From an uncultured bacterium (lineage in GTDB: Bacteria > Oederibacteriota > JAAXVQ01), in NCBI GenBank assembly GCA_964593065.1, contig CAZQGO010000001.1, forward strand, positions 268,565 through 332,564: DNA of 64,000 bases. Reading direction: 5' to 3'. A program made the translations under genes and the position numbers. The first letter of the stretch is position 1. Each line of letters begins with the position of its first letter. This document shows positions 37,652 to 53,616 of this stretch, piece by piece. Below the pieces are notes generated by a model that had not been told where the DNA came from, did not search any database, and saw only the letters and a list, made by a program, of their open reading frames with translations.

Positions 37652-38748
37652 ATCCGACCCTGCTGGGATTCGTGCGCAAGGAATTCATCCAGACCCTGCG
37701 CGATCCGCGCATGCGCGTGCTCATCTTCCTGGCGCCGATCCTGCAACTGCTGCTTTTCGGCTACGCGATTTCGACCGAAGTGCGCAACATCCGCCTGGCG
37801 GCCCAATACGCGCCCCAAGACGTCCTGGCGCGCCGGCTCGAGGAACGGGCCCTGCGTTCGGGCTGGTTTCTTCCCGCCGCCGTACGCGGCGGCGATCCCT
37901 TTGCATGGATCCAGGCCGGCCAGGCCGACGCCGTGTTCATCGCCCCGGCGCGGGGCCTCACCCAGGACGTGCAGCGCGGCGGCGCCCGGGTCCAGGTGCT
38001 GGTGGATGCCACCAACGTGCTGCGGGCCCGCGCGGTGGAACGGTACCTGCAGGCCGTACTCCAGGAGGTCCTGGCCGAGGCCTTCCCGGGAGCGCAAACC
38101 GCACCACCCATCGCCTTCGACGTCCGCATGCTCTACAACCCCGCCATGGATACCGCCTTCTTCCTCGTGCCGGGCGTCATGGTCATGCTGCTGTGCATCA
38201 TCACCGTGCTGTTGACGAGCATGTCCTTAGTGCGGGAAAAGGAACTGGGCACATTCGAGACCCTGATCTCGGCGCCCGTGAAGAACTGGGAGATCCTCCT
38301 GGGCAAGACCCTGCCGTTCATGCTCCTGAGCATGGTCGTGGTGCACCTGATCCTGTTGGCGGCCATCGTGATCTTCGGACTGCCCATGCGGGGCGCCTAT
38401 TGGAAATTCCTGCTGGCGGCCTTTCTCTTCGTCTGCACCACGGTCTCCGTGGGCACGCTCATCTCGACCATCGCCAGGCGGCAGCAACAGGCCATGATGG
38501 CCACCTTCCTGTTTCTCTTTCCGGCCATCATGCTGTCGGGCATGATGTTCCCGATCGAGAACATGCCCGAGGGGCTCATTCTGGTGGCCTATTTGAATCC
38601 CTTGAAATACATGCTGACCCTGCTCCGCAACATTCTGCTGAAAGGCGGGGACGATTGGGTGTTCTGGACGAACCTGGCGGCCCTGTTTTTAATCGCTTTG
38701 GTGGCCGTGGGAGCCAGTTTCAACCGTTTCCGCCAAACCCTCAATTAA
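37648..38748 (+). CDS. ABC-2 type transporter permease (YbhS/YbhR-like)
   Basis: ATGA overlap with the previous gene. VRKEFIQTLRDPRM N-terminus; paralogue of the preceding permease. Confidence 0.88.
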   Translation: MNPTLLGFVRKEFIQTLRDPRMRVLIFLAPILQLLLFGYAISTEVRNIRLAAQYAPQDVLARRLEERALRSGWFLPAAVRGGDPFAWIQAGQADAVFIAPARGLTQDVQRGGARVQVLVDATNVLRARAVERYLQAVLQEVLAEAFPGAQTAPPIAFDVRMLYNPAMDTAFFLVPGVMVMLLCIITVLLTSMSLVREKELGTFETLISAPVKNWEILLGKTLPFMLLSMVVVHLILLAAIVIFGLPMRGAYWKFLLAAFLFVCTTVSVGTLISTIARRQQQAMMATFLFLFPAIMLSGMMFPIENMPEGLILVAYLNPLKYMLTLLRNILLKGGDDWVFWTNLAALFLIALVAVGASFNRFRQTLN

Positions 38749-38922: not shown

Positions 38923-41900
38923 ATGCCGCGAACCTGTACGAAAAACATCCGCAGCCCAAGGAATATCAGGAATTCGCTACTGCGCGCCCGCCGGCGTCAC
39001 GCCGGTTTTGCGCTGTGGACGAAATGCCTTTCCCTGCTTCTCTCCCTCAGTTTCATTTTTCCCTATCTCACCTGGGCGTTTGAACCGGAAAATTTTCCGA
39101 ATCCGCCCGCGGCGGAATTTACCCCCCCGCATAAACCCATCACCATTCCTTCCGAGTACGGGATCATCACCCAGTCGTTCCGGGGCGGAGACCGCCGGGT
39201 GGTGGTGATCCAGGATTTGCATTGCAACTTTGAAGTTCAGATGAACATTGCCGGCATCCTGGATCATTTGGCGGACACCCAGGGGCTCCGGCTGGTCGGC
39301 ATCGAAGGGGCGAGCCAACCCCTCAATGTCAGCAAGCTCGGGAGCTTCCCCGTGCCCGAGGTCAAACGGCAGGTCGGCCGGTATCTGGTTCGGCGGGGAG
39401 AAATCGGGGGCCCGGAATACTATGCCGCCACCGGGCGGCATCCCATCCGGGTCAAAGGCATCGAGACCCGGAAACTTTACCAGCAGAGCCTGGCCGAAGT
39501 GCGGAGCTTTTTGAACCCGGAGAACCAGGGGATCTGCTACGACTTGCGCGAGGCGTATGAGGAACTTAAAGGCCGCTGGTACACGCCGGCCTTGGGATCC
39601 TTGGATCAACTGCAGTCCCGGTACCGCCAGGGCCAACTGGGGCTGCGCGCGTACGTCCTGGCGCTGCAGCGGGAGGCCCGAAAATTCGGCGCCGAACTTG
39701 CGGACGCGCCGGAGATGCAGGCCATCCTGCAGGGGGCGCAGGCGAACCTTCCGCCCTCCGGCGACCGGGAAAAGCTGGACAGCGAACTGGACGCATGGGT
39801 GGCCGCCCTGCGGGAAACGCTGTATACGCGGGAGGAGCAGCGGTCCCTGGACCTCTACCTGGGCCGTCTGGACGTGCTGGAAAAACTCATGCATATTTCC
39901 GCCAGTCCCGCGGAAGTATCCGCTTTCTGCGCGCACCGCCCGGACTATGCCGCGACGGCGTTTTTGCAGGGCCTGCGGCAATTGTCACCCGCCGGGACGG
40001 AGGCCCAGGACCTGGAACCGGAAATCCTCCAGCTGGATGCCTGCCTGGAACGTGTCGCGGATTTCTACCGCTTGGCCGACGAGCGCAGCGGGCAGTGCGC
40101 CGCCAATCTGCTGGACCGCATGCGCCGGGACGGGGCCGACTTGGCCGTCCTGGTCGCGGGCGGTTTTCACGCGGCAGGCATTCAAAAGACCTTGGAAAAT
40201 GCGGGGGTCTCATATCTGGGCGTGCAGCCGCGCGTGACCGACTTCGAAACCGATTCCCCCTACTTCCAGTTGCTGCAGAACCGAGTGACACCTTTGGAAA
40301 AGCTTCTGACCGCGCGGCAGAACCTGCTGGCCATCCCGGTAAGCAGCGTGGAGGTCAGGGAAGACGCCGGCACGCAAGACACAGCCGCCGCCATTCTGAA
40401 TGAAGACAACCTGGAACAGCTTGCCGGGACGCAGGACCGGCAGACCTTGCAGCGCTACCGTGCGCATCTGAATTTCATCCAGGTTCTGCTGAACGGCTGT
40501 CTCGTCGACTGGCTGGCCGGACAAGGGGCCGGCGCCCGCCTGTTCCTGAAATATTTTTCCCTGAAACAAGACTACCCTGCGGATTATTCCGGATTGGAAT
40601 TCAATGCGGCCAAAGCGACCTCGGAAACCTTGAAACAACTGGCCGCGGGCCAGCCCGCCGTCCTGCAGCTGGCGGACGCGGGCGTGCCGTTCACCCTGGT
40701 ATTGTCCCCGGCCGCGGATTCCGGGCGGGAAGCGGCGGCTCTCGCGAGCATGCCTTTGGAGGACGGCCGGAAGCTGTGGGTCATGAACCCGGCACAGGTC
40801 GAGGCCTACCGGCGGCAATGGCAGGCCGCGTCCGGCCCGGGCCGGCTGCTGCGTGAGGTAACGGTGCGCATGCCCCGCAGCCTGGCTGTGGTTTTCGCCG
40901 TGCACCTGCTGGGAAGACTGGCCCTCGCCGGGCTTGCCTTGCAGGCCCGTGGCCGGAGCATTTGGGCCGGGCTGAAAACCGCCGGCCCAGGGGCGGCCTG
41001 GGCAGGGCTGGCCAATACGGTGGTCAATTTCCTGACGGTTTCGGGCCTTGCTCTCCGGTTGGCCCGGCTCTGGCCGACGCCGGGACGGGCTCCGTCGCTT
41101 TCGGGCGGGGCGCGCAAGCCGCTGATGGAACCGCACCGGCCGCTCAGGTCCTCCGAATCCGCGGCCCTGCTGCGGCTGGCGCGGTCCCGCCCCTGGCCGG
41201 CCGTGGAAAACAAGCAGATCAATTTGCCCGGCGGGCAGCCGCTCACCCTGCCTTCCTACCGGCTGGTGGCCTATACCGCCACGGGCAGGGACGATCCCAT
41301 GGATTTGCTGCTGGCACGGAAAGGCAACGCCTATCATCTCCGGGATCCGCAAAGCGGGGAACAATTCATTTTCGTGAACCAGGCCGCCATGGACCGCGAG
41401 GAGGCCGTCGAACACGAGGAGTTCGACCTGTTCTGGACCGTGCGGCTGGAGGCGGAAGCCTCTTCGCCCGAAGGCCTGCGCCTGCCCGCCGGGTTCGACA
41501 TCCAGCGCGCCGCCCATACCCTGGCCTGGGGCCTGCAGATCGCCCTGCGCGGCTGGACCCGTGTGGGCCAGAGCGCTTTTCTACGCCATGAGCTGTTTTT
41601 CCTGGGCGAAAGCGACCTGCGGAGCCTGGCGCGCGAGAACCGCCGGCCCCATGCTCAACTCCGCGAGAGATATCTCACGCCCCTGCTGCCGCCCCAGACC
41701 CTGCAAACGATCGCGGATTTCGAAACCTCCATCCGGGACGCCTACGCGGCCAACGATCCGCGCGATTTGCGGAATTACCGGCAGGTGAGGAAAATTCTCG
41801 CCCAGGGCATCCGGGGGGAAATCCGCGCCATGCTGCGGGGAGAGCGCGAGGAGTATGCAGCCGACTATTTTCTCGAAGCCATGCCTTTCCTGGCCTTGGA

Positions 41901-44900
41901 CGACGGCGAGGAGGTCATCACCCTGCACCGGCTGGCCGACGAGCTCTACCCGGAAATCCTGGCCCAATTCAAGACGGATTTTGCCAAAGCCGCGAAAAAG
42001 CTGGCCAGGGCCGAGTACGGCCAGGCCGTGGTTGCCGATCTCCCGACCTCAGAACAGCTGTTTGCCTTATTGCAGGTGCGGAACGAATACCAGTTCGTGC
42101 TGATCCAGGGCGCAGCCGGCAGGTTCCTGCTCATCTGCAAGGGCACGGGCGAACTGCCCGACGCCCTCGTCGAACTGACCGGCGCCGGAGCCGTGGTCCC
42201 CGAGGTCTTCGGTCTGCTGCCGCTCGGACCCTATCTTGAGGCCGTGGGTCACTCCCACCCCAGAGCCGCCGGCCCCAGCCCGCGGGACCAGGACAATCAG
42301 CAGAGCCTCAGCGAGACGCTGCGGGACATGGACCTGGATCCTTCCCGGGTGGGAAGATTCGTGGTCCGGATCGATCCCAGGCTGGGGCATTGGTGGTTGT
42401 GGCGTTTTGACGCCGATACCGGGGCTTATGTCCGGCATGAGGGCCAGGCGGAAGTGCGGGAGCAGCTGGCGGACCTGGGGTTCATTCAGCGGCCCTTGGC
42501 ACCGGCCGGCGACGACCGCGAGGGCGTCATCGGCGCCATGCTGGAAGGGCATCGCGGGCTCTATGCGGAGATGGTCGAGCGGGTGGGGAAGATTGCGGCG
42601 CGGCGCGGATGGGGCGGAATATTCTCGGGCCTGGAACGGGCGCGCACGCCGCAAGACCGGCAGGCCATTGACCGGGCCCTGGCCCGGCTGCGCCAGGCCG
42701 GATTGCCGGAAGAACGAATTGAACGCATGCGGGCCAGGGTTTTCCCGGTAACTGTGGCCGAGAGCAAGCTCGGCCGGGAAGGCAGCCGTTTGGGCGGGCT
42801 GATCGTGCGCCATGCGGGGGAATATCACGTACTCTTCCCGCGGGAGCGGCTGCTCAACCCGGACCCGGAGGTCCTGGGCGACCTGCTGCACGAGCTGGTC
42901 GAGATCGAGCTGCTGGAAAACGGCTTCACCCTGGCGGAAGCGCATTGGCAGGCCCTGCGCCTGCGCCGGCTGTGGCTCGAGGGCGGGGAAGCCCCGGGGC
43001 CCGCGGTGGCCCAGGCCTGGGAGGAACTGCGGAATCCGTACCGCTGGGGTCAGTTCGAACTTGCGTTTCCCGGAATCCTGCGGGGCATCCTCGACGGGCG
43101 CAATGTATCCTCCCGCACAAACTTGGCGACCCTGCCCGAGGACCGGCTGGCAGGGATCCGCCGCGAATTCCTGGCCGCGCTGCATGCGGCCGGCTGGCAC
43201 GCCCCGCCCGAAGTGCAGGAACGTTACGAAAACATCGTGCATCATCTCCTGACCGCCGCCCAGCTCCGCCAGTTGACCCAGGCCCTGGGACCGGTCACCG
43301 AAAGAGACCTGGCCTGGGTGCTGCAGCGGCTCCATACCTTCGCGGTCCGGTTGGATGAATTCGGCGTGCAGCCGGAGGTGGCGGTCCAACTGCGGCTGCT
43401 GGACCTGTTGAACCAGCTGCCCTTCAGTGAAGCCCAGCGGGTTCAGCTGCTCGCCACGCACGGCCTGGCCGGGCCGCAGTGGGACGGAGCCGTCCCCGAT
43501 GCCGCGGTGACGCAAGCATTGCGCGCCGGGAAACTGGACGAGGCGTGGGAACGGGTCTTCGGGCAGTCACGCCCGATCGCCGAGGCCCTGCCTTTCCTCA
43601 AGGCGCTGGTCGAGTTCTTCCGGGTCTCTTTGTCCAGGATGGAAAATAACTACTTCATCAACCTCCTGCTTGATTTTCAGAATACCACCGGCAGGCCATT
43701 GGAACGGGGGACCGCGGACGAGCGGCGGCGGGCGGCGGGCGAACTGACCCGCAACACCGTGGACGGCCTGTGGATCGCGCTCGAAGTCGGGCATTACCTG
43801 GCCGACCGGGGCATCCGCATGGAGCGGTTCCTGGCGCGCGGGTTCGACGGCATCGTGTTCGAGGGCAGACTGCGCGGGCGGCCGGTCGTGATCAAAATCA
43901 ACCTGCCGCAAAACGGCCTGAAGCCGCGGGAGCTGCTGGAAAACATCAACCACGTCATGTCGGCCACGGACGGGCGGCCCGATTTTGTCCAGAACCAGGA
44001 GCTCCTCCTCATTCGCACGGTGCGGGACCAGGAGATCGTGATCGAAGTCAACGCCAGGGTGCCGGGTATTCCCCTGTGGCGGCTGCTCCACCATCCCGAA
44101 GCCTATGGCGTCGGCGCGGCCGCGGTGCTGGACCACCTCCGCCAATTCCTGGACATGCACGCCTTCCTGGCGCGGCACGGCCTGGTCAACCGCGACGCTC
44201 AGAATCTGAACAATATCGTGACCCGGCCCGACGGCCGGGACCAATTCGTCGATTTCGGAAATATCCGGCCGCGACAGCCGGGCGAAGAGACCTGGGAGCG
44301 CCGCCAGGTTCTTCTGGCCATGATCAAGATCCTCACCGGCCAGGCCATCCGGCTGGCGGAGAGCCAGGAGGGGGATCAGGGGACGGACATCGGCCGCGAG
44401 CAGTACATCGCCCTTTTCCTGAAAAGGTTCGGAGAACAGCATCGCGAACTGGCCGCGGAGATTTTCACCCTGTGGGCGGACGCCTGGGAAAATCCGGAAA
44501 AGCCCTGGGAAGAACTGAGCCAGAGCCTCGGGGAGCTCTCCGGCCGCCTGGGCGAATCCGAACGCCTGGCCAGCGGAATCGTCGGAGCCGCGCTGGTGGA
44601 GGGCGGAGGCCCGGCTGCGCCCCTCGGCCTTGCGGCTGCGGAGAGCACGCGCGGATTGAGAGCAACGGCGGAAACGCGGCCGACCGCTGCGCCGCTTCCC
44701 GGCGATGAATCCCTGGCCGGCGGGATCGGCATACCGGGCGCAAAGCTTCCCCGGAACATTCTTGCCCGCCAGGCTGCGGTTGCGGCTTTGGGCTACGGGG
44801 CTTTGGCCGCCGGACTGGCAGGCGTACTGGCGGCCTTGGGGGTGGGCGATCCGCAGGCCAATCTGGCGGTCGTGGCCTCCGTGGCGGGCTTCTTGAGCGG

Positions 44901-47900
44901 CCGGGCCGCGCTCGCCGGGCTCGCCGAATGGTTCATCAAGGGCCGGGTCCTGCGGAACGGCCCCGGCTTGATTTACGTGACGGACGGCCGCCTCGTCATC
45001 GACCGGCGTGTGCAGGTAACCTCCTTCCCGCGCCGGGTCCTCGCCTATACTGCCGGTTACATCTGCCTGGGTTTGCTCGCGGTCAGCAGTCTCGTGCATG
45101 AATTCTTCCACTATTTCCTGCCCTCGGAAACGGCCGTGTACGGCCTGGAAGCCCTGACCGTGATGACGGTCGCGGGCTTCTTCCTCAACGCGCTGTGGAT
45201 CACGGCCGCGGGCGCGCTGGCGGTGGGCGCGGTTCTCCTGGTGCGGGTGGGCAGGGAAATCAGAGCCGCCATGGCCGGCACTGCCTCTCTGGCCGCCGCG
45301 CCGGAGACAGCGGAAACCGATACCGAAACAAACGCCGCTACACCGGCTTCCTTCCTCCTTGAAGCCATGGGGCTTGGCCGGGTCGACCAGATTCCAGGTG
45401 CCACCCGCTTGCCGTTGTCCGCAGCCGACGAGTCGGTTTTCGCCACGGCGGGCTTGCAAGTGGCAAGGATCCGTCTCGATCAACAACCCTCGAGCGCTGT
45501 GCTTCCGGAAGGCGTCGAGATCCTGCGAAGAGAGTTGCTGATCCGCGGTCAGCAAACTAGTGTATTCGATCTGCTCTTGTCTTCCGATGGCGCGCGAATC
45601 CTGGCGGCATTTCCGGCCGGAGATGGGAAACAATCGGCTCCGCCAAGTGCAAAAACCGGGTGGGACTACGTGGACTTTACACCCTACTATCTGTCCCTCC
45701 CGAATCCGGCAGGCCGAGCGGCCGAAGAAGCCTGGAAAAATTTCGGGTTTGAATGGGAACGGACGCAAGCATTGGTTCAAGCTTACAAGAACGTTCGGTT
45801 CGGCCCTGCGGCCGCGCGCCTGGTCCATGCCATCAATCCCCGGGAGTCTTACGTATCCGTTGCGGTCTCGCGCTTGACCGGTAAAGTTACCGTGCGGCCT
45901 CTCTATATTAAAATGGGCTCTCTGCCCAGGCCCCGGCCCTGGACGCGGCAATTGCTGGTACCGGTTTTCCCGACGGTCTACACGTTCAACCGCTTTCTGG
46001 GCCCGGACCGTAATTTCTATGCCAAAGTATATGCTTATCTTAAAGCCGGTACGCCCGTAACGGTTTTAGGTTCGGGGTCGGGCGTGGATACGGGCCTTGC
46101 TTGCCTGAAAAGCGGGCGGCCGGTCGTCAGCTACGATGCAAATTCACTCGCCCGCGCAAACGTATCGGCCATGGCAGCTTTAAACGGCCTTGACGTCAAG
46201 GTCACGGACCAAAGACCCAGGAACCCGATAGGGCTGGTGGTCTGGAATATGCCGGCGTACACACCTCGCGGGCTGTTCGCCGACAAAACCCAGAAACAAT
46301 TAAAAGATATCTGGGACCGGGATATCGGCGGCGAAATCCTAAGGGACTTCGCGCGCTACTTGGCTGCGAATCGTGTTCCCGCGCTGATTTGGAATGAGTC
46401 CGTCCATCAGGCTGAAATTGCGGAGATCGTCCGGGCGGAAGGTTTGACCCTCCGCACCCTGGGCCGCAACGTCTTCCTGCTCGAGCCCGGCGCGCGGGAA
46501 CGGGCGCCGGACATGATTCCCGCAAATGCGGCCCCGAATGGCGCCGCACTGATCCGAGATTTCGCCCTGCCGACCGATGCGTTCCAGGGAATCCGGCCGG
46601 AACGCTTAGAGGCCCTGGCACCTCTGCTGCAGGCCCGGCTGGAAGAGAGCCGCGCACCGGCGGAGGAGTTCCCGTCAATCCTCGCCGAGACCTCCCTCTT
46701 TCTGGACCGGGCCGAATCCGCGCGGGCGCGGATGCTGGCTGGAGAAGCCCTCACCGCCGACGATCTCGCCGCCCGGCTAGCGATCGAACCGGCCGAGGCC
46801 GCACAAATCCTGGATTACCTTGGCGGCTGGGATGCCGAACTCACCTATTTGAAGGGCATCCATCCCTCGCAGGGCGGGAAAACTTACTTCCACCCCCTGG
46901 TGGCTCCGGAGGCCGTCTTCCTGACGCTGGTAATCGTGCTTGCGGCGGCGACGGGATTCACCGCCGGCTGGATGTTCGGCGCACTGTTCCTGGCCGGCGG
47001 TTTCTTGTCCGTGCTGCTCAGCTCGCCTTGGCTCCAGCGCCATCCGAAACTTCGAAAAATCGCGACAGGGCTCTCCGGCGGTATTCAAATCCTCGCCGGT
47101 GGTTTGCTCTACGTTACCTTCAATCCCGCGGGCTTATCCGCAACCGGTCTCGCGGTTTTGTTCATGCCCCTGTTGTTATCCCGGCCGATCCATGAACTGG
47201 GGCATTACGTGATCGGCAAATTCTCCGGATTGAAGACCCTGGAGTATTCGCTCTTCCGGGTGAAGATTGACCCCCGTGAATTGCAACGCTTGCACCTGCT
47301 TCCCAAAATCGCCTTCCTGAGCGCCGGCATCCTGGCGGCCGGTCTGGCCGGAATTTTACTCATCGCCTTGGGCTCGGTATTCCACCTGGCAATCATTTCG
47401 GTTTTCGGGATCCTGCTCACGGGCCTCGCACTGTTGGATTTCCTGCCCGCTTATCGTGGTGCGCTACCCTTGGATGGCTTGCGAATCTATGATGCCCTGG
47501 CTTCCGCCTTGGCCGAGTACGCGACGCAGCGGTTTCTCCTGCCCCTGCGCGAACGCCGGCAGAACCGGCGCCAGCCGCGCGGACCGTCGCCGGAAATCAG
47601 GACCCAGGCCGTTTTCCCGCTGCTCGAGTCCCTGCAGTTGACGGATCCGAAGCGCATTCCCGGTGCAAAATTCCTGGATGCCCCCCCTGTGCGGGGCCTT
47701 GATGTAAAACGCCTGGAACTGCCGCCCCTGGCCGATCCCAACCAGCCGCCCACGGGCGCGGATTACCTGCAGTGCCAGCTGGCCGACCCCACGAAGGGAG
47801 CAGTGAGGGTTTTCGATCTGCTCTATGATTCCCGCGGGCATTTGCAGGCGGTTTTTCCGGTTTTGCCGGAAACCCTGGGTCCGGGCCGGGCAGAACCGGT

Positions 47901-50900
47901 CACGGAAAAAATGATCCTGGACCACCGCCTGCGCTATCTGGATTTGTCGCCGTACTGGCTGCAAGTCCCGCCGCTGGGCGCCTCCGGGGCGCAAGCCCGC
48001 TGGCGGGCCGCGGCGCGTGCACAGAATCGGGCCCGGCGCGCCATTGAGGCCTACAAACAGGCGCGTTTTCCCGGGGATCTGGCCGAGCGTCTGGAAACAG
48101 TTCCCAGGGACTTTCCCGAGCTCGATCTCGGCTTTGGCGAAGAAACGAGGATAGTGGAGGAGGAGCTGCCGGACATCGATTTCCTGGTGGCCCGGGTGGA
48201 GCGGAATACCGGCGCGGTGCAGGTGAAGGGATATGCGCTCCGGCAGCTGGCGGCCGCCGACCTGAAACCGGAGCCGGGCTATGACTACGTGATAGCGCCT
48301 CTTTACCCTTCGGTATATTTTCCGCAGCTGGCGGCCGAACAGCCCTATTATCAGGGCATCAGCCAAGAGCTTGATTTGCAGCCCGGGCAGAGGGTGCTGG
48401 TGGCGGGTCCCGGTACCGGTCTGGATGTCTGGCTCGCCTGGAGGCAAACGAAGAACAAGGTGTATGTGGTGGGCCTGAATCCCATGGAAATCGCCAACAC
48501 CCGCGCCTTTGCCGCCGCCGCGGGTTTTGAGGTGGAGGCCGTGGTGGGGGACAATATCGTCACGGCCGATGGCCTTCCGCGTTTTGCAGAGCCTTTCGAC
48601 CGCGTACTGTACAATACGCCTTTCCTGGCTCTCGGGGAAGAGGAACAGCCGACCTATTATGAATTTTTGGAAGACCGTTGGGATGGAGATTACGGCGGCG
48701 GCATGCTCCGCCGATTCGCCCGGGGCCTGCTCGAGGTTCTGAAACCTGGCGGCCAGGCCTGGATCTGGCGGAGCGTCAAACATCACCTGCAGGAATCCAC
48801 GGCTTGCTTGAAAACCGCCGGACGAACCCTGGACCCGGCCGTCCTGCGCGAGGGGCCGGACCTGCTGGAGGTGGAGGAAAAGGCCCAGGGGGTCTGCCGG
48901 GTCACGCGTCCGGGAGCGGACGTAGTGGATCCCAGGCCGGTGCTCGCCGGGCTGCTGCACGCGGCCCATGTGCGTTACGACCTGGCGGTTCGAAAAGTGG
49001 TCAATGCCTCCCAGGAACCGAAGACGGGTCTTTACGGAGGCGCCGGAGCCGATCTTGCCAATTTCCTGTTGTCGACCAACGCCCGCATCGGTTATTTCGT
49101 GGCCCGGTATGCAGGCTTGGATGTCTCGGATCTGGAGCGGCTGGCGGATTACCGGGGAAAAGTGAATCCGGACTATGCCCGGGAAAAATTCCGGAAAGGT
49201 TTTGCCTCCACAGCCGATGTGACGGCCAAGGAAGACATTCTGGCGGCTTTGGCGTTCGAGCTGGAGGCCCTGGGCGTTGATTTGGACCAGGTCCGCGCGG
49301 ACGATGATGCCGGGCATCCCCGCATTCGTTTTGAATGGGCTTACCCGGGAGCCGGGCCTGAAACTTACGCCGTGACCTTCCTGGACGGAGACATCACATC
49401 GCTGGGCGCATTGGATGAATCGGGCCGGCTGCCCGCAGGGTGTCCGCAGAAACTGGTGGACGTACTCGACGGGAAATTTGATATCTACTACCAAAGGGCG
49501 GGAGGCCAAATGGCCTCCGGATACGCGCAACCGCACAATTATATTCATTCCCTCTATGCCGCGTTGAGTCCCGGAGGCCATATGATTACGGATGATTATG
49601 CGCTGACCGGGCCACGCCGAAATCGGGTTATGGATTTCGGGGCTCAATTCCCGCTGGCTCTCGCGGAAGTCGGGCTTCCGCGAGCCGGGGACTTGGCGGA
49701 GGACATCCTGCGGGTACGAATCTCCCTGGCCGGCGTGCCGGAAAGTCTGCGGTCGTTGTTTTACACCACCGAGAAATCCGCGCCGGAAAATTACTACGGC
49801 TGGCATGTGCGCATCCGGCAGAAACCCGGCGCGACGCCTGCCGCATCCGAGCCCGGGCCGGCCGGCCGACGTGGCGCCAGACCGGCCGCGGCCCCCGAGG
49901 GACCACGGCCGCTGCCTGGAACCCAGGGGCCGCCCGCGGAGGCAAGGGTCGCCCAGGCCGGCCTGCGGGCACTGTTCCACGGCGGGGCTTTCCTGGTTCT
50001 GCCCGGCTTGGCGGCGCTCCTCGATCATGCCGGCGGTCTGGCCGCCGCCTGGGTCCGCCTTCTGACCGGCCGGCGGCCCGTGTCCGGCCGTCTCAGCCTG
50101 ACGCCGCCACCGCAAACCAGGCATCCCGGACCGGGAGTCGCTCGGGCCATCGCGCTCGTAACCCTGTGGGCTCTATCTCCGGGTGCGGTGTACGCCCAGG
50201 GACCGGGAGGAGATGCTTCCGTCCCTGAAAGATTCCTTGCGGTTCTGGCCGCGTCGCTAGCCTTCCTATCGATCCTTGCTTTGCCCTTTGTTTTCATGGC
50301 ATTGAAAGAGCGCAAGGTCAAGGCCGACTTGCTGGCCATAGAGCAAGGCGCGGCCCGGGGTGATTTCCTGCCTGCGGTCAAGGCGCTCGGCCAAAAGAAC
50401 GAAACCATCAGGGGGCGCGCCAGGGAAGTGGTGGCCGGGGCCGGGGTTCGGGCGTTGCCTGCCATGCATGAAATGTTGGCCACGAGGGAAAGGAGAATAA
50501 TCCAAACGGATGCTTTCTGGGATAGTTTCGGACGGGTCGCGGATCAGAGCTCCATTCCCCTGCTCGAGAATGCTTACGACGAGATGACTATATCGGCCCG
50601 GCGGCGATTCATCGATGACTACGAGATTAGTCAAATATGCAGGCTTCTGCACCGTCCGTGGCCGGTACACGAGTTTGAGCTGGCGGGCCGCCCGTATACG
50701 GAAGCGGACTATCACCAGGATGAGCGCCGGTTGTCGCAGTTGGAAAAACGCTTACAGGCGACTCCAGAGCAGATCGGTACTACGGTGGGGGATAAACCCC
50801 ATGTGGATCAAGGCGGATTCCGGACGTACAAAACGGTCTGGGAATCGAATCCGGAATATCCTGCGGTCCTGCGGTCAATCCGTGATTTGCAAAATCGGAT

Positions 50901-53616
50901 GCACGCGTTTCGCATCGAGCTTCCAAAACTGGCAGAAATCCATGCGATGGGCGCAAGACGCACAGTATTGCCGCGCATCGGTCTGAAGGCCCTCTATCTC
51001 GCGGAAATGGCGAGAACGGGATTGCCGGTCCCGGACGGATTCGTGATCCCCCCGGATGTGGATGTGAATGAGCCGCGTGACGGCCAGGCGATCCTGCAAG
51101 CGGCGGCTGCCTTCTTCGCGCGGCATGAGACCTTGATTGTGCGCAGCAGTCCCGAGATCTCCATGCCGGGAATGCTGGAAACCATCGGAAATATCACCAC
51201 CGAGCAGGAGCTCGTGCAAGCCATCCGACAGGTGCGGTTATCCTGGAGCAAACCCGAGGTTGTAGAGTACCGGAAACAGCAAGGACTGCCGATGTACATG
51301 GACCTGCCGGTGATTGTACAGAAGATGGCCGCGGGCGACAAAAATCAACTCTCGGGCAGTGGGGTGTTCTTCACACGCGATCCCGTGAACGGCTCGGCCA
51401 CTCCGGTTTTACGATTCGCGGTGCAGGCCAAGGGCGAAGCGGTGGTCGGCCGGGCCCCGCAAGCGCCTTTATCACAGTTCCCGGAAAGGTTCGCCTGGGC
51501 ATTCGACCGACTTCGGTCCGCGGGCGGACAATTGGAGCGCACGTTCCGCGAAGCCGTGGAGATGGAGTTCGTCATCGAAAACGGCGAACTGTGGATCGTG
51601 CAAGCCAGGCCGGCTGCCATGTCCGCCAACGCCCGGCTTCAGTCCGCTTTGGAAATGAGCGTGGAAGGGCTGGTTGAACCAGCCACACTGGCTGCGGCCG
51701 TGGGCAACGCGATGTATCAGCCCCTGTACCGCGTCGCTCCGAACGCCGAACTGCTGGAACTCGGACGGGGCCTCGGATCCGCACCCGGCGCGGTTCGGGG
51801 CACGGTCGTGACCAGTCTGGCGCAAGCCGAGCAGGCGAGGCGGGAAGGCAAGAAGTGTATCCTCGCGGCGTGGAATCATCCCGAACAAATCCCAAGAGCG
51901 CTTTTGGACGGCATGGTCGTGGGTGTGGTGACAGCAAACGGTCACGAGGCGCTGCACGACAGCGTCCTGGCGCGCTCTCTCGGTATTCCCGTCGTGGATC
52001 AAGTGCGCGGGGGGGAACAGCGGCTGAAACCCGGGACCGAGGTCATCCTGGACGGCACTACGGGCAGGATCTTTGCGGCTCCGGCCGGACCCAATCCGTT
52101 CCTTCTGGACAGTTTCGTGGAGGTAGCTGGCACCCGATTCAGCATCCGGCAGGAACAAAACCTGAACAGGGAACGATATGCAGGACGGAAGGATTATCGT
52201 CCGCTGATCCGGGAACATGCGGCCCTGACGGAGAAATATCTGGTCCGCAGCGAAGGATTTGGAACTCTGGAGATCCTGAAGTTGAGCATTCAAGCCCATG
52301 CGGCGCACGAGCGGATACGCGACTTGGGTAGCCAAGGCCGTAAATACCGGTCACCAGAACGCATCGCAAAAGATATCTCGGCGGCTTATTCCCCTGCGGT
52401 TAAGGCGGCACTGGAAAAGAGGCGCGCCGGATTGCCACCCTTGGGATCCGATGGAAGTCCCGAGTCTGCTGGCGGCGTCCTGCCTTTTGTCAAAGCCCGG
52501 TGGGTGAACCGGGGCAACCCGGACGAAGCCGTGCGGGCCCAGCGCGCGGCGGCCTACGACACCCGCACGGCCTGGTGGCTGGAGAACGGACTTTTGTATG
52601 GCGTGGCGGCTGTGCCGGTGCTGATCGGCATTCTGGGCTTCGGGCTGCCAGCCCTGGCCACGGCCGGGGCGGGCTACGTGCTGGTCTGGGCCCTGTTCGC
52701 GCCTTTGCACTACCTGCGCACCCGGGCCGGCCGTGCGCCGCCGGCCAACCTCCGTGCGGCGTGGGTGATTGCGGGTATCAATTTGGCCTTTGCCCCCGCC
52801 CTGCTTCTAGCGCCCGGATTCCTGCCGGCCATCGTGGGGGCATCCTTGGTCACGCACTGGGGGGTAAACCACTGGCTCGGATCGTCGCGGGCCGATTTTG
52901 GACTTGATTCGGCGCTGCTTCAAACCGGAGTACGCGCGGTGCTCGGCAGAGGTGCCTCCCTGGCCCTGCCCGGCTCAGCGGCGCTGCTTGACAATGCCGG
53001 CGGTGTGGCGTCCGCAATGATCCGGCTGGTGGCCGGAGCTCGGCCCGTGTCCGGCCGTCTCACACTGACGCTTCCAGCGCAAACCTCGCATCCCGGACCG
53101 GGAGTTGCGCTGGCCGTTGCGGTCGGGAGAGCGACCGGAGCCACGCGCCTAGGCGTTCTGAGCCGGCAATGGGCCCTCGGCCGCCAGCCGGAAGCCTACC
53201 TCGCGGCCTGGGGCCGGGCCGCGCAGTACCGCTCCGCGCTGGGCCGCGAGCTGCAAAACGAGAACAGCCAGGTGAGACGCCTGATCCGGCGCGGCGCGGG
53301 GAACGACCTCCGCCAAATGCAGCGGCAACTGCTGACCACGCTGGCGGATATGCTCAGGCAGGAGCCGCCCAGCGAGGAATTGCTGGCCGAAACCCTGGAC
53401 TTCATGCAGGCCTTGGCTCCCATGGCGACGATGACAGCCGGAAGCCTGGGCAACAAAGCCATTCGCCTGCCCCGCTTGCTGTTCGCGCCCGAAATGAGAA
53501 GGGAATTGCGGTTCTGGCTGGACTATTTCCGGAATTTCCCGGACCTCCGGTTGCGGGAGAGACGCGAACTGTCCCCAAGACGCCGAGCCCCGCGCACGGT
53601 CGGCCGCTCGGCCTAA
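38923..53616 (+). CDS. Giant (4,897 aa) multi-pass membrane, multi-enzyme mosaic protein of unknown function
   Basis: A single stop-free frame of 14,694 nt with protein-like composition throughout. Multiple independent catalytic-type motifs are listed as sub-features below. An in-frame stop 33 nt upstream (38890) fixes ATG 38923 as the first ATG. Confidence 0.85.
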   Translation: MPRTCTKNIRSPRNIRNSLLRARRRHAGFALWTKCLSLLLSLSFIFPYLTWAFEPENFPNPPAAEFTPPHKPITIPSEYGIITQSFRGGDRRVVVIQDLHCNFEVQMNIAGILDHLADTQGLRLVGIEGASQPLNVSKLGSFPVPEVKRQVGRYLVRRGEIGGPEYYAATGRHPIRVKGIETRKLYQQSLAEVRSFLNPENQGICYDLREAYEELKGRWYTPALGSLDQLQSRYRQGQLGLRAYVLALQREARKFGAELADAPEMQAILQGAQANLPPSGDREKLDSELDAWVAALRETLYTREEQRSLDLYLGRLDVLEKLMHISASPAEVSAFCAHRPDYAATAFLQGLRQLSPAGTEAQDLEPEILQLDACLERVADFYRLADERSGQCAANLLDRMRRDGADLAVLVAGGFHAAGIQKTLENAGVSYLGVQPRVTDFETDSPYFQLLQNRVTPLEKLLTARQNLLAIPVSSVEVREDAGTQDTAAAILNEDNLEQLAGTQDRQTLQRYRAHLNFIQVLLNGCLVDWLAGQGAGARLFLKYFSLKQDYPADYSGLEFNAAKATSETLKQLAAGQPAVLQLADAGVPFTLVLSPAADSGREAAALASMPLEDGRKLWVMNPAQVEAYRRQWQAASGPGRLLREVTVRMPRSLAVVFAVHLLGRLALAGLALQARGRSIWAGLKTAGPGAAWAGLANTVVNFLTVSGLALRLARLWPTPGRAPSLSGGARKPLMEPHRPLRSSESAALLRLARSRPWPAVENKQINLPGGQPLTLPSYRLVAYTATGRDDPMDLLLARKGNAYHLRDPQSGEQFIFVNQAAMDREEAVEHEEFDLFWTVRLEAEASSPEGLRLPAGFDIQRAAHTLAWGLQIALRGWTRVGQSAFLRHELFFLGESDLRSLARENRRPHAQLRERYLTPLLPPQTLQTIADFETSIRDAYAANDPRDLRNYRQVRKILAQGIRGEIRAMLRGEREEYAADYFLEAMPFLALDDGEEVITLHRLADELYPEILAQFKTDFAKAAKKLARAEYGQAVVADLPTSEQLFALLQVRNEYQFVLIQGAAGRFLLICKGTGELPDALVELTGAGAVVPEVFGLLPLGPYLEAVGHSHPRAAGPSPRDQDNQQSLSETLRDMDLDPSRVGRFVVRIDPRLGHWWLWRFDADTGAYVRHEGQAEVREQLADLGFIQRPLAPAGDDREGVIGAMLEGHRGLYAEMVERVGKIAARRGWGGIFSGLERARTPQDRQAIDRALARLRQAGLPEERIERMRARVFPVTVAESKLGREGSRLGGLIVRHAGEYHVLFPRERLLNPDPEVLGDLLHELVEIELLENGFTLAEAHWQALRLRRLWLEGGEAPGPAVAQAWEELRNPYRWGQFELAFPGILRGILDGRNVSSRTNLATLPEDRLAGIRREFLAALHAAGWHAPPEVQERYENIVHHLLTAAQLRQLTQALGPVTERDLAWVLQRLHTFAVRLDEFGVQPEVAVQLRLLDLLNQLPFSEAQRVQLLATHGLAGPQWDGAVPDAAVTQALRAGKLDEAWERVFGQSRPIAEALPFLKALVEFFRVSLSRMENNYFINLLLDFQNTTGRPLERGTADERRRAAGELTRNTVDGLWIALEVGHYLADRGIRMERFLARGFDGIVFEGRLRGRPVVIKINLPQNGLKPRELLENINHVMSATDGRPDFVQNQELLLIRTVRDQEIVIEVNARVPGIPLWRLLHHPEAYGVGAAAVLDHLRQFLDMHAFLARHGLVNRDAQNLNNIVTRPDGRDQFVDFGNIRPRQPGEETWERRQVLLAMIKILTGQAIRLAESQEGDQGTDIGREQYIALFLKRFGEQHRELAAEIFTLWADAWENPEKPWEELSQSLGELSGRLGESERLASGIVGAALVEGGGPAAPLGLAAAESTRGLRATAETRPTAAPLPGDESLAGGIGIPGAKLPRNILARQAAVAALGYGALAAGLAGVLAALGVGDPQANLAVVASVAGFLSGRAALAGLAEWFIKGRVLRNGPGLIYVTDGRLVIDRRVQVTSFPRRVLAYTAGYICLGLLAVSSLVHEFFHYFLPSETAVYGLEALTVMTVAGFFLNALWITAAGALAVGAVLLVRVGREIRAAMAGTASLAAAPETAETDTETNAATPASFLLEAMGLGRVDQIPGATRLPLSAADESVFATAGLQVARIRLDQQPSSAVLPEGVEILRRELLIRGQQTSVFDLLLSSDGARILAAFPAGDGKQSAPPSAKTGWDYVDFTPYYLSLPNPAGRAAEEAWKNFGFEWERTQALVQAYKNVRFGPAAARLVHAINPRESYVSVAVSRLTGKVTVRPLYIKMGSLPRPRPWTRQLLVPVFPTVYTFNRFLGPDRNFYAKVYAYLKAGTPVTVLGSGSGVDTGLACLKSGRPVVSYDANSLARANVSAMAALNGLDVKVTDQRPRNPIGLVVWNMPAYTPRGLFADKTQKQLKDIWDRDIGGEILRDFARYLAANRVPALIWNESVHQAEIAEIVRAEGLTLRTLGRNVFLLEPGARERAPDMIPANAAPNGAALIRDFALPTDAFQGIRPERLEALAPLLQARLEESRAPAEEFPSILAETSLFLDRAESARARMLAGEALTADDLAARLAIEPAEAAQILDYLGGWDAELTYLKGIHPSQGGKTYFHPLVAPEAVFLTLVIVLAAATGFTAGWMFGALFLAGGFLSVLLSSPWLQRHPKLRKIATGLSGGIQILAGGLLYVTFNPAGLSATGLAVLFMPLLLSRPIHELGHYVIGKFSGLKTLEYSLFRVKIDPRELQRLHLLPKIAFLSAGILAAGLAGILLIALGSVFHLAIISVFGILLTGLALLDFLPAYRGALPLDGLRIYDALASALAEYATQRFLLPLRERRQNRRQPRGPSPEIRTQAVFPLLESLQLTDPKRIPGAKFLDAPPVRGLDVKRLELPPLADPNQPPTGADYLQCQLADPTKGAVRVFDLLYDSRGHLQAVFPVLPETLGPGRAEPVTEKMILDHRLRYLDLSPYWLQVPPLGASGAQARWRAAARAQNRARRAIEAYKQARFPGDLAERLETVPRDFPELDLGFGEETRIVEEELPDIDFLVARVERNTGAVQVKGYALRQLAAADLKPEPGYDYVIAPLYPSVYFPQLAAEQPYYQGISQELDLQPGQRVLVAGPGTGLDVWLAWRQTKNKVYVVGLNPMEIANTRAFAAAAGFEVEAVVGDNIVTADGLPRFAEPFDRVLYNTPFLALGEEEQPTYYEFLEDRWDGDYGGGMLRRFARGLLEVLKPGGQAWIWRSVKHHLQESTACLKTAGRTLDPAVLREGPDLLEVEEKAQGVCRVTRPGADVVDPRPVLAGLLHAAHVRYDLAVRKVVNASQEPKTGLYGGAGADLANFLLSTNARIGYFVARYAGLDVSDLERLADYRGKVNPDYAREKFRKGFASTADVTAKEDILAALAFELEALGVDLDQVRADDDAGHPRIRFEWAYPGAGPETYAVTFLDGDITSLGALDESGRLPAGCPQKLVDVLDGKFDIYYQRAGGQMASGYAQPHNYIHSLYAALSPGGHMITDDYALTGPRRNRVMDFGAQFPLALAEVGLPRAGDLAEDILRVRISLAGVPESLRSLFYTTEKSAPENYYGWHVRIRQKPGATPAASEPGPAGRRGARPAAAPEGPRPLPGTQGPPAEARVAQAGLRALFHGGAFLVLPGLAALLDHAGGLAAAWVRLLTGRRPVSGRLSLTPPPQTRHPGPGVARAIALVTLWALSPGAVYAQGPGGDASVPERFLAVLAASLAFLSILALPFVFMALKERKVKADLLAIEQGAARGDFLPAVKALGQKNETIRGRAREVVAGAGVRALPAMHEMLATRERRIIQTDAFWDSFGRVADQSSIPLLENAYDEMTISARRRFIDDYEISQICRLLHRPWPVHEFELAGRPYTEADYHQDERRLSQLEKRLQATPEQIGTTVGDKPHVDQGGFRTYKTVWESNPEYPAVLRSIRDLQNRMHAFRIELPKLAEIHAMGARRTVLPRIGLKALYLAEMARTGLPVPDGFVIPPDVDVNEPRDGQAILQAAAAFFARHETLIVRSSPEISMPGMLETIGNITTEQELVQAIRQVRLSWSKPEVVEYRKQQGLPMYMDLPVIVQKMAAGDKNQLSGSGVFFTRDPVNGSATPVLRFAVQAKGEAVVGRAPQAPLSQFPERFAWAFDRLRSAGGQLERTFREAVEMEFVIENGELWIVQARPAAMSANARLQSALEMSVEGLVEPATLAAAVGNAMYQPLYRVAPNAELLELGRGLGSAPGAVRGTVVTSLAQAEQARREGKKCILAAWNHPEQIPRALLDGMVVGVVTANGHEALHDSVLARSLGIPVVDQVRGGEQRLKPGTEVILDGTTGRIFAAPAGPNPFLLDSFVEVAGTRFSIRQEQNLNRERYAGRKDYRPLIREHAALTEKYLVRSEGFGTLEILKLSIQAHAAHERIRDLGSQGRKYRSPERIAKDISAAYSPAVKAALEKRRAGLPPLGSDGSPESAGGVLPFVKARWVNRGNPDEAVRAQRAAAYDTRTAWWLENGLLYGVAAVPVLIGILGFGLPALATAGAGYVLVWALFAPLHYLRTRAGRAPPANLRAAWVIAGINLAFAPALLLAPGFLPAIVGASLVTHWGVNHWLGSSRADFGLDSALLQTGVRAVLGRGASLALPGSAALLDNAGGVASAMIRLVAGARPVSGRLTLTLPAQTSHPGPGVALAVAVGRATGATRLGVLSRQWALGRQPEAYLAAWGRAAQYRSALGRELQNENSQVRRLIRRGAGNDLRQMQRQLLTTLADMLRQEPPSEELLAETLDFMQALAPMATMTAGSLGNKAIRLPRLLFAPEMRRELRFWLDYFRNFPDLRLRERRELSPRRRAPRTVGRSA
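39007..39081 (+). other. Giant ORF: N-terminal signal-anchor / TM helix
   Basis: FALWTKCLSLLLSLSFIFPYLTWAF preceded by an Arg-rich segment (LLRARRRH). Confidence 0.6.
39175..40243 (+). other. Giant ORF: TraB/ChaN/Tiki-superfamily-like domain
   Basis: RRVVVIQDLHCNFEVQMNIAGILDHL...LVGIEGAS near the start and DLAVLVAGGFHAAGI near the end. These resemble the paired (GE/D)xH....H and GxxH motifs of the ChaN/TraB/erythromycin-esterase (Tiki) fold. Confidence 0.4.
40880..41075 (+). other. Giant ORF: hydrophobic segment (probably 2 TM helices)
   Basis: LAVVFAVHLLGRLALAGLAL ... WAGLANTVVNFLTVSGLALRLARLW. Confidence 0.4.
42080..42420 (+). other. Giant ORF: JAB/MPN-like metalloprotease motif region
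   Basis: AVGHSHPRAAGPSPRD (His1110, His1112) resembles the JAMM signature HxHx7Sx2D as seen in RadC/prokaryotic JAB (HNHPSGxxxPSxxD), but is one residue shorter between H and S. Confidence 0.3.
43812..44400 (+). other. Giant ORF: protein-kinase-like domain
   Basis: Gly-rich loop LARGFDGIVFEG and VVIK (Lys1658). Catalytic loop HGLVNRDAQNLNN (Asp1758, with Asn at +5). DFG (Asp1777). The order and spacing fit the eukaryotic-like/atypical kinase fold, with HRD changed to NRD. Confidence 0.6.
44755..45255 (+). other. Giant ORF: TM block 1 with membrane-embedded HEFFH motif (degenerate M50-like)
   Basis: Several hydrophobic helices. HEFFH (His2059-His2063) sits inside one of them. I found no downstream xxPLDG motif. 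Confidence 0.45.
45950..46490 (+). other. Giant ORF: HemK/PrmC-like class I SAM methyltransferase domain 1
   Basis: Motif I VTVLGSGSGVDTG and motif IV VVWNMPAY (Asn2442), an NPPY variant. DIGGEILRDF matches the family's dGG.dGl segment. Confidence 0.7.
46885..47510 (+). other. Giant ORF: TM block 2, site-2-protease (peptidase M50)-like domain
   Basis: HELGH (His2757-His2761) lies in a TM helix. A downstream LLDFLPAYRGALPLDG (Asp2851) matches the S2P pair HExxH plus (N/D)xxPxxxLDG. Confidence 0.65.
48291..48775 (+). other. Giant ORF: HemK/PrmC-like class I SAM methyltransferase domain 2
   Basis: Motif I VLVAGPGTGLD and motif IV VLYNTPFL (Asn3231), then DGDYGGGMLRRF and LKPGGQAWIW. It is parallel to domain 1, including the preceding PxVY(F)P segment. 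Confidence 0.7.
48990..49620 (+). other. Giant ORF: third Rossmann/methyltransferase-like segment (weak)
   Basis: LYGGAGADLANF (Gly-rich), FLDGDI, FDIYYQRAGG and LSPGGHMITDDY loosely follow the class I MTase motif order. Confidence 0.3.
49960..50150 (+). repeat. Giant ORF: intragenic direct repeat, copy R1
   Basis: Encodes GLRALFHGGAFLVLPGLAALLDHAGGLAAAWVRLLTGRRPVSGRLSLTPPPQTRHPGPGVARAIA. It shares identical nucleotide blocks with R2: a 22-nt block (50074-50095 = 53041-53062) and an 18-nt block (50121-50138 = 53088-53105). Confidence 0.9.
50320..50600 (+). other. Giant ORF: HEAT/PBS-lyase-like helical repeats (weak)
   Basis: AVKALGQKNETIRGRAREVVAGAGVRALPAMHEML...SSIPLLENAYDE resembles short HEAT-like repeats. 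Confidence 0.3.
50965..51615 (+). other. Giant ORF: pyruvate-phosphate-dikinase-type ATP-grasp (PPDK_N-like) nucleotide-binding domain
   Basis: LYLAEMARTGLPVPDGFVI, IVRSSPEISMPGMLETIGN, RLSWSKPEVVEYRK, SGSGVFFTRDPVNG, KGEAVVGR and VEMEFVIENGELWIVQARPA parallel the conserved blocks of PPDK/PEP synthase N-terminal domains. The helical insert subdomain seems to be missing. Confidence 0.8.
51760..52090 (+). other. Giant ORF: PEP-utilising-enzyme mobile (phosphohistidine swivel) domain
   Basis: GSAPGAVRGTVV...KKCILAAWNHPEQIPRALLDGMVVGVVTANGHEALHDSVLARSLGIPVV...VILDGTTGRIF. His4345 aligns with the catalytic His of GGxTSHAAxxAR. Confidence 0.7.
52560..52880 (+). other. Giant ORF: C-terminal TM cluster
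   Basis: AWWLENGLLYGVAAVPVLIGILGFGLPALATAGAGYVLVWALFAPL ... AAWVIAGINLAFAPALLLAPGFLPAIVGASLV. Confidence 0.5.
52927..53117 (+). repeat. Giant ORF: intragenic direct repeat, copy R2
   Basis: Encodes GVRAVLGRGASLALPGSAALLDNAGGVASAMIRLVAGARPVSGRLTLTLPAQTSHPGPGVALAVA. 43 of 65 residues are identical to R1 by hand alignment. The offset is exactly 2,967 nt (989 codons). Confidence 0.9.

Follow-up and report, generated by a model that had tools for sequence, protein, structure and literature searches.

The 64,000-nucleotide window analyzed here (contig CAZQGO010000001.1, from an uncultured bacterium of the GTDB lineage Oederibacteriota) carries one giant open reading frame (ORF), whose 4,897-residue product contains two related modules that are each made up of an N-terminal domain (N-domain) and a methyltransferase-like domain. 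A hydrophobic membrane block stands before each module, and the second of these blocks resembles the M50/site-2 protease (S2P) family (Table 1). An earlier, sequence-only reading of this DNA had described two consecutive units of about 1,000 residues; these are instead parts of the single 4,897-residue protein. The motifs that it quoted are all in place in frame 1, namely HEFFH at residue 2059 (nucleotide 45097), HELGH at residue 2757 (nucleotide 47191), GSGSG at residue 2383, GPGTG at residue 3162, NMPAY at residue 2442, NTPF at residue 3231 and LPLDG ending at residue 2852.

Table 1. Features of the giant ORF, in window coordinates (nt, nucleotides; aa, amino acid residues).
Feature	Window positions	Strand	Residues	Landmarks and basis
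Giant ORF	38923-53616	+	4,897 aa	One open frame in the ORF list and translation; holds all of the features below
Head domain	39007-40722	+	~29-600 (~570 aa)	Follows a signal-peptide-like start; motifs IQDLHCNxEVQ, GIEGA, VAGGFH
Possible kinase-like region	43600-44500	+	~1560-1860	Motifs VVIKINLP, HGLVNRDAQNLNNI, VDFG
Membrane block 1	44761-45258	+	~1947-2112	Four to five hydrophobic helices; HEFFH aa 2059-2063 (nt 45097-45111); hydropathy and motif scan
Module 1 N-domain	45301-45957	+	~2127-2345	Motifs LLEAMGL..IPGA, FDLLL, AAFP, DFTPYYLSLP, AYKNVRF; aligns with the module 2 N-domain
Module 1 methyltransferase-like domain	45958-46557	+	~2346-2545	FPTVY at its start; GSGSG aa 2383 (nt 46069-46083); WNMPAY aa 2441-2446 (nt 46243-46260); then WDRD, RDFA, IWN; aligns with module 2 and the family
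Linker	46558-46896	+	~113 aa	Soluble; joins module 1 to membrane block 2
Membrane block 2 (divergent, M50/S2P-like)	46897-47502	+	~2659-2860	HELGH aa 2757-2761 (nt 47191-47205); DFLPAYRGALPLDG ends at aa 2852; candidate third zinc ligand D2851 (nt 47473-47475)
Module 2 N-domain	47575-48294	+	2885-3124	Mixed alpha/beta with a 26-residue helix in the AlphaFold2 model
Module 2 methyltransferase-like domain	48295-48912	+	3125-3330	GPGTG aa 3162 (nt 48406-48420); GDNIV (motif III); YNTPF aa 3230-3234 (nt 48610-48624); then WDGDYGG; TIGR00537, phmmer, family profile and Foldseek
Third methyltransferase-like domain, distinct in type from the first two	48925-49930	+	~3335-3670	Weak similarity to TylF/NovP (E = 0.004-0.06)
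Second internal repeat	49939-50157 and 52906-53124	+	3673-3745 and 4662-4734	Chunked self-BLAST and DNA comparison
PPDK_N (ATP-grasp) and PEP-utilizers (phosphohistidine swivel)	51070-52080	+	~4050-4385	Pfam, E = 1e-27 and 4e-9

When residues 1945 to 2560 were compared with residues 2600 to 3330 by BLASTP, the two modules (aa ~2127-2545 and ~2885-3330) aligned with 27% identity over 465 columns (E = 5e-21), so the two soluble segments are significantly similar, as the sequence-only reading had proposed. A chunked self-BLAST of the giant protein recovered the same pair, and phmmer matched module 1 to module 2 with E = 6e-17. The four parallels previously noted between the two "spacers" all fall within the BLASTP alignment, and they are conserved motifs of a larger family.

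The extent of this family was examined in an exhaustive phmmer search of residues 2640 to 3330 against 1.84 billion representatives of 50%-identity clusters, which returned 174 representatives with E ≤ 1e-3, 128 with E ≤ 1e-10 and 50 with E ≤ 1e-30. Nearly all of these matches covered query positions ~250 to 650, which correspond to the N-domain and the methyltransferase. Mapping of the family was based on the best 150 of the 174 relatives and produced 161 module instances. The 20-sequence alignment (A1) displays, in order, the motifs LLxALxL, FDLLY, AVFP, YFDLSPYY..P, FPTVY, GPGSGxD, NPLExAN, DNI, WNMP, WDGDxGG, RF and WN, and the family gave no match above any Pfam or NCBIfam curated threshold. 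Modules were found alone in proteins of ~440 to 530 residues, in tandem arrays (two copies in P0006, four to five in P0003 and two in P0005) and embedded in proteins of 1,500 to 7,800 residues (two copies in P0002, four in P0004). Judging from these arrangements, the module is itself the unit of evolution, occurring alone, in arrays of two to five copies or scattered through long proteins. The closest relative of the window protein is P0002, with 43 to 46% identity in the modules.

Other searches returned fewer relatives. A word-indexed homologue search found three proteins when run with the family profile and none when run with the S2P-block profile or with module 2 plus block 2; a scan of a genome collection found no relatives with module 2 alone and three loci (L082, L083 and L084) with a 5-sequence alignment. 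In the related loci, which belong to metagenome-assembled genomes (MAGs) of FCPU426, Elusimicrobia and "Planctomycetia," the module frame is open over the whole 6.5 to 7.2 kb fetched. Since the frame is open throughout the fetched stretch, the module of L082, L083 and L084 is part of a very long ORF. In L083 (FCPU426 MAG, JAFGIQ010000127.1), where the ORF is open for more than 7 kb, two transmembrane helices and a soluble "LPRFMQRLILLHELAH" segment precede the module.

The sequence-only reading had described the repeat as a tandem duplication, but its two copies are not close relatives. Module 2 matched the two modules of P0002 with 328 and 305 bits, and module 1 ranked only 137th among its 185 matches. 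Module 1, in turn, found its best matches, of 100 to 113 bits, in other proteins, namely P0064, P0005, P0007 and P0002. No DNA-level repeat was found for the two modules. Given this score ranking and the absent DNA repeat, we rejected a recent tandem duplication; the modules are, on these comparisons, old and diverged paralogues, with copy 2 far closer to the modules of P0002 than to copy 1.

The N-domain, of ~235 residues, had previously been regarded as a spacer. When module 2 was modeled as a whole with AlphaFold2 on the 20-sequence alignment, it formed one compact body (predicted local distance difference test [pLDDT], 87.2; predicted template-modeling score [pTM], 0.88). The N-domain modeled alone with AlphaFold2, also with 20 sequences, gave a pLDDT of 85.9 and a pTM of 0.85, and its secondary structure was the same as in the full-module model. 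Foldseek found no PDB match to the N-domain model at E ≤ 0.001 (best E = 2.3, TM-score ≤ 0.2), and Pfam and PDB sequence searches gave no match in the N-domain half of the module. Throughout the family, the N-domain always stands alongside the HemK2/N6AMT1-like class I methyltransferase. These models indicate that the N-domain is a conserved folded domain of unrecognized fold that packs against the methyltransferase, rather than a mere spacer. PrmC and PrmA likewise combine an N-terminal substrate-binding domain with a class I methyltransferase, and by analogy with them we infer that the N-domain may recognize the substrate.

The C-terminal half of the module is, according to both sequence matches and the structure model, a HemK2/N6AMT1-like class I methyltransferase domain, which agrees with the HemK-type assignment of the sequence-only reading. 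Residues 3149 to 3300 of module 2 matched the NCBIfam HemK2/MTQ2 model TIGR00537 (E = 1e-9, 38.2 bits), and a phmmer search of the PDB with the module 2 sequence found N6AMT1/HemK2 with E = 1e-3; Pfam Methyltransf_25 scored 14.8 to 19.5 bits against a cut-off of 27. When the family profile was compared with the PDB, N6AMT1/HemK2 was the top match (E = 8e-7), with the W-N-M-P of the family aligned to NPPY and W-D-G-D-x-G-G aligned to the A-W-A-G-G loop. At E ≤ 0.001, Foldseek of the module 2 model matched 1,032 PDB entries, and each of the 50 that were listed has a class I methyltransferase fold; the target-normalized TM-score was 0.67 to 0.71 against KMT9/N6AMT1 and 0.51 against PrmC. Since module 1 by itself had no methyltransferase match in Pfam, NCBIfam or the PDB, its assignment rests on homology to the family. 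Across the 161 module instances, the three GxGxG glycines are kept in 140, 152 and 153, the motif III Asp in 133, and the Asn and Pro of N-x-P in 136 and 146, respectively; 143 instances retain the first Asp of WDGD. This strong conservation of cofactor-binding and catalytic motifs argues for the module methyltransferases being working enzymes.

The sequence-only reading had also included the membrane blocks in the repeat, such that the duplicated unit would be a whole triplet of intramembrane HExxH protease, spacer and methyltransferase, with the first protease having decayed and lost its third zinc ligand. Consistent with this proposal, a polytopic block lies directly before each module, both blocks have an HExxH inside a hydrophobic helix, and the two motifs share the local context S-x-x-[VI]-H-E-x-x-H-Y. 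The giant protein contains three HExxH motifs, of which one lies in the PEP-utilizers domain, whereas 0.09 are expected by chance in the whole protein and ~0.004 in a 191-residue block; given these values, the HEFFH of block 1 is unlikely to be pure chance. However, the two blocks are not significantly similar: phmmer aligned a single Ala/Gly/Leu helix, a compositional match with E = 0.4, and hhalign of the block 2 profile against block 1 aligned 15 columns around the HExxH with a probability of 1.4%. Block 1 had no Pfam match at E ≤ 10, no homologue among the best 150 of the 174 relatives and no third-ligand motif, and although its HEFFH lies within a hydrophobic stretch, nothing else in the block aligns to M50. 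The triplet proposal also conflicts with modules 1 and 2 not being mutual nearest relatives, with the modules of P0003 and P0006 repeating without an intervening membrane block, with P0002 having two modules and no S2P block and with the HExxH of the PEP-utilizers domain being probably incidental. We therefore consider duplication of the whole triplet to be distinctly improbable. The spacer and the methyltransferase are repeated, as had been claimed, but because the two hydrophobic blocks do not align, the demonstrable repeat unit is, from the alignments, a segment of ~400 residues that comprises the N-domain and the HemK2-like methyltransferase without a membrane block. The HExxH of block 1 likewise has, at the sequence level, no support beyond the motif itself, and block 1 is not detectably related to block 2. 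An "LPR...HExxH" segment found upstream of modules in P0012, P0002 and P0036 was rejected as a relative of block 1, since the P0012 and P0002 segments matched each other only with E = 0.2 and block 1 matched none of them.

The earlier suggestion that only the second block retains the features of an S2P fared better, although its corollary that block 1 is a degenerate protease is unsupported by the Pfam and homologue searches. Among the best 150 of the 174 relatives, block 2 has relatives in P0126 and P0137 (domain E-values, 7e-18 and 4e-15, respectively). The three-sequence profile of block 2 with these two proteins (A2) matched Methanocaldococcus jannaschii S2P (MjS2P; PDB 3B4R) with E = 3.9e-6 over 138 positions, with the HExxH in register and the DG of the block 2 third-ligand motif aligned to PMDGG; the HELGH with which a hydrophobic helix of block 2 ends was matched by the HELGH of MjS2P. 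The same profile matched RseP with E = 0.06. All three A2 members touched Pfam Peptidase_M50 (best E = 1e-4). The first position of the NxxPxxxxDG motif, normally Asn, is Asp in block 2 and Asn in P0126 and P0137. On the strength of these alignments, we accept block 2 as a divergent M50/S2P-like domain.

The pairing of this domain with a methyltransferase had been presented as a fusion unfamiliar from characterized systems. Among the best 150 of the 174 relatives, however, an S2P-like block lies directly before a module only in the window protein. In P0126 and P0137, the S2P-like block is accompanied by other domains but by no methyltransferase, and in P0017 and P0018, more canonical M50 motifs lie 600 to 2,000 residues from the module. 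A hydrophobic segment lies within 200 residues upstream in 38 of the 116 module instances that include the N-domain start, and an HExxH is also present in 5 of these 38. The linker between module 1 and block 2 has no relatives among the best 150 of the 174 proteins. From these distributions, the protease-methyltransferase pairing is not a conserved unit, and the S2P-like block is a separate mobile piece that is not part of the repeat.

The head domain near the N terminus of the giant protein is common to 14 other long proteins, all of which have the methyltransferase module. The shortest head-bearing relatives, of ~1,500 residues, consist of the head, one transmembrane helix, the module and a C-terminal transmembrane block, and the order in head-bearing relatives is signal peptide, head, one hydrophobic helix, Arg-rich sequence and module. 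In the window protein, RERRQNRRQPR follows the helix that carries the DG motif, with no further helix before module 2. In RseP, the LDG motif is at the cytoplasmic end of its helix. Given the Arg-rich stretch after the helix and the analogy between the DG helix and that of RseP, the modules are likely to be cytoplasmic.

Taken together, these results lead us to favor, with a probability of roughly 60%, the reading that the window protein is a membrane-anchored mosaic giant protein that contains old, paralogous modules of N-domain and HemK2-like methyltransferase, with an S2P-like domain before copy 2 only, and that operates by the following mechanism. Both modules would face the cytoplasm, where each would bind S-adenosylmethionine (SAM) via its GxGxG, motif III Asp and N-x-P and would N-methylate an amide or amine nitrogen, most likely of a protein side chain, as HemK2 and PrmC do. 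The N-domain would hold or recognize the methylation substrate. The S2P-like domain would cut a transmembrane helix near the cytoplasmic face, with either the giant protein itself or a partner as its target, and this cleavage would release or regulate neighboring domains.

Several observations, set out here and in the following paragraph, weigh against this reading. The profile searches suggested by the sequence-only reading did match both expected families, but below their curated cut-offs: TIGR00537 scored 38.2 bits with module 2 against a cut-off of 87, and block 2 of the window protein alone scored 9.7 bits (E = 0.68) with Peptidase_M50 against a cut-off of 27.2. The substrate, SAM binding and activity of the modules are predictions drawn from their sequences, the topology of the giant protein was assigned by hand, and the idea that the S2P-like domain cleaves its own protein is wholly conjectural. 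Furthermore, motif IV is N-x-P (NMPAY in copy 1, NTPF in copy 2 and W-N-M-P in the family consensus) and in no instance NPPY; where strand 2 ends, at a position whose acidic residue normally contacts the SAM ribose, Gly stands in 97 of the 161 instances (module 2 included), Asp in 48 and Glu in 9; and module 1 is without motif III, the DNI of the family. These features, together with the failure of module 1 alone to match a methyltransferase, would also be expected if one or both methyltransferase domains were catalytically dead and served as scaffold or binding modules. Nevertheless, the deviations are the family consensus over the 161 instances, which argues for a working, if unusual, active site, and module 1 retains GSGSG, the strand-2 Asp and WNMPAY. 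Loss of catalysis strikes us as rather unlikely.

The second challenge to our favored reading comes from the stand-alone family members. At least 18 of the 28 short members (≤900 residues) with an N-domain start with a signal peptide of the Sec type, and several of these peptides show AxA-type cleavage sites; the tandem-module proteins P0003 and P0006 also start with Sec signal peptides. Stand-alone modules with Sec-type signal peptides are found in P0016, P0027, P0043, P0053, P0056, P0058, P0064, P0068, P0080, P0085, P0099 and P0106. Since signal peptides on most stand-alone members would direct the module to a location beyond the cytoplasm in which SAM is not expected, export of these proteins seems, from their sequences, to fit poorly with an ordinary cytoplasmic methyltransferase. 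The modules might instead act outside the cytoplasm, as exported or surface-exposed enzymes or binding domains that are possibly delivered to a SAM-supplying cell, in which case the membrane blocks would be internal export signals. However, the charge distribution and the S2P analogy suggest that the modules are cytoplasmic in the window protein and in the head-bearing relatives, and the SAM-binding motifs are strongly conserved, SAM being a cytoplasmic cofactor. As a point in favor of an outside location, papers on the giant proteins of Omnitrophota report predictions that place the majority of enzyme domains outside the cell (bioRxiv 10.1101/2023.11.21.568195, 10.64898/2026.06.07.730766), although the authors of the former call some of these extracellular predictions unlikely. 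On balance, we regard extracytoplasmic action as unlikely. A broader and rather doubtful scenario would be that the modules constitute an extracytoplasmic or cell-to-cell delivered N-methyltransferase family with Sec-exported forms, in which the embedded S2P-like domain cuts a polyprotein to release the modules, in uncultured and possibly predatory or episymbiotic lineages.

Comparison with characterized methyltransferases is informative with respect to both likeness and difference. HemK2 is a eukaryotic and archaeal glutamine-N5 and lysine methyltransferase whose partner is TRM112, and the HemK family methylates the GGQ glutamine of release factors. The module resembles HemK2/MTQ2/N6AMT1 (KMT9), which provides its best sequence and structure matches, in having a class I Rossmann fold and in the order of its elements, i.e., the motif I Gly loop, the strand-2 "xINPxxxAxxxxxA," the motif III Asp, the motif IV Asn-x-Pro and the W/A-x-G-G/D loop. 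In contrast to HemK2, the module has N-M/T-P rather than NPPY, mostly Gly at the end of strand 2 and an N-domain of ~235 residues that is absent from HemK2; many of its members have signal peptides, no TRM112-type partner is known for it, and the curated cut-offs are missed. The added N-domain and the signal peptides of relatives make a release-factor substrate doubtful. With PrmC and PrmA the module shares a two-domain logic, and PrmC (2B3T) and PrmA were among the Foldseek matches, with 220 to 300 columns aligned. However, the N-domain has no detectable structural similarity to either protein, and since the root-mean-square deviation to PrmA was 12 to 14 Å, the domain arrangement differs from that of PrmA.

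Like the M50 proteases MjS2P (3B4R), RseP and SpoIVFB, block 2 has an HExxH in a transmembrane helix, followed by a loop and two more helices, the last of which carries [N/D]-x-x-P-x(n)-D-G. It differs from them in being very divergent, in having no PDZ or CBS domain and in lying in the middle of a 4,897-residue protein rather than being a stand-alone enzyme.

The overall architecture of the window protein resembles that of the membrane-anchored multi-enzyme giant proteins ("Archaeovorin" type) described for Omnitrophota (bioRxiv 10.1101/2023.11.21.568195, 10.64898/2026.06.07.730766), in which transmembrane clusters alternate with divergent enzyme domains (PPDK_N, kinases and methyltransferases) and most of the sequence is unannotated. 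In these papers, 39% of the long proteins are reported to have a signal peptide and transmembrane helices, and embedded peptidases are proposed to cut the giant proteins. At 4.9 thousand residues, however, the window protein is smaller than the 10 to 147 thousand residues given there and falls below the 10,000-residue threshold; no SecA-like domain was found in it, unlike in the Omnitrophota giants, and its apparent source is another candidate phylum (FCPU426). Searched passages of the two papers contain no mention of "metalloprotease," "M50" or an S2P-like domain, nor do they describe the module of N-domain and HemK2-like methyltransferase. Both enzyme superfamilies are known, as is their occurrence in giant proteins; what distinguishes the module is its new N-domain, the HemK2-like domain with its N-M-P motif, the frequent signal peptides and the tandem arrays.

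These findings resolve an unannotated stretch of a giant protein into defined parts and expose a sizeable family (128 clusters at 50% identity, E ≤ 1e-10). If the signal peptides hold, they would call into question the expected confinement of SAM-dependent methyltransferases to the cytoplasm, and the family may help explain the role of giant membrane proteins rich in enzyme domains in Omnitrophota, FCPU426 and Elusimicrobia. The embedded S2P-like domain is a testable candidate for giant-protein processing. If the modules are ordinary cytoplasmic protein methyltransferases, the result would be a useful annotation rather than a surprise.

Outside of the modules, the giant protein is a multi-pass mosaic with many enzyme-like domains, and most of its sequence is without annotation; Pfam searches of ten slices gave nearly no matches. 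The 50%-identity representative library includes an identical protein (P0001), and an exact-match look-up of the giant protein in an assembly index returned no entry. Hydropathy analysis identified six hydrophobic clusters (aa 28-53, 655-673, 1951-2109, 2659-2814, 3772-3790 and 4553-4640), such that many transmembrane segments alternate with divergent enzyme domains, as in the long proteins discussed above. The enzyme-like contents comprise PPDK_N/PEP-utilizers, two or three methyltransferase-like domains and one S2P-like domain.

Because the window has a G+C content of 60 to 68% and many long spurious ORFs on the opposite strand, the long ORF could in principle be an artefact, either of fused genes or of a frame that happens to be open in GC-rich DNA, with no such fusion protein being made. 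However, homologues in other long proteins cover the head, both modules, the third methyltransferase-like domain and part of the C terminus in the same order, confident fold predictions and strong PPDK domains occur in this frame, and at the related loci, too, the frame stays open beyond 6.5 kb. We find an artefact scarcely credible.

The remaining domains of the giant protein are less clearly defined. The head domain had no Pfam match, and its residues 60 to 492 had no PDB sequence match. The possible kinase-like region weakly matched the archaeal kinase TkArkI in the PDB (E = 0.024). The third methyltransferase-like domain, which matched NovP in the PDB sequence search with E = 0.06, is found twice in P0002 (E = 1e-74 to 1e-83). 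The PPDK_N and PEP-utilizers domains occur without a phosphoenolpyruvate/pyruvate-binding domain. The HEALH at residue 4341, within the PEP-utilizers domain, overlaps the expected phosphohistidine motif and is probably incidental rather than a zinc site.

A second internal repeat, which has the motif G.RA..GA.L.LPG.AALLD.AGG.A.A..RL..G.RPVSGRL.LT.P.QT.HPGPGVA, was detected at two positions that each adjoin a transmembrane cluster. Its copies are 60 to 65% identical in amino acid sequence over ~73 residues (E = 5e-21) and, at the DNA level, 75% identical over 201 nucleotides, and by sequence it is much younger than the module repeat.

With regard to the genomic neighborhood, a pyruvate:ferredoxin oxidoreductase subunit encoded in the window has 77% identity to FCPU426 MAGs and 76% identity to a Candidatus Firestonebacteria MAG, so that the DNA probably stems from an uncultured member of candidate division FCPU426 or a relative. 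The genes around the giant gene are of ordinary bacterial types. Upstream of the giant gene and on the same strand, positions 32149 to 38748 encode an outer-membrane efflux protein, an HlyD-type adaptor, an ABC ATPase and two ABC-2 permeases, and this efflux/secretion gene set, whose products might conceivably export the giant protein, stops 175 nucleotides before the giant gene. The genes downstream of the giant gene encode a Sir2 family protein, a pseudouridine synthase and others.

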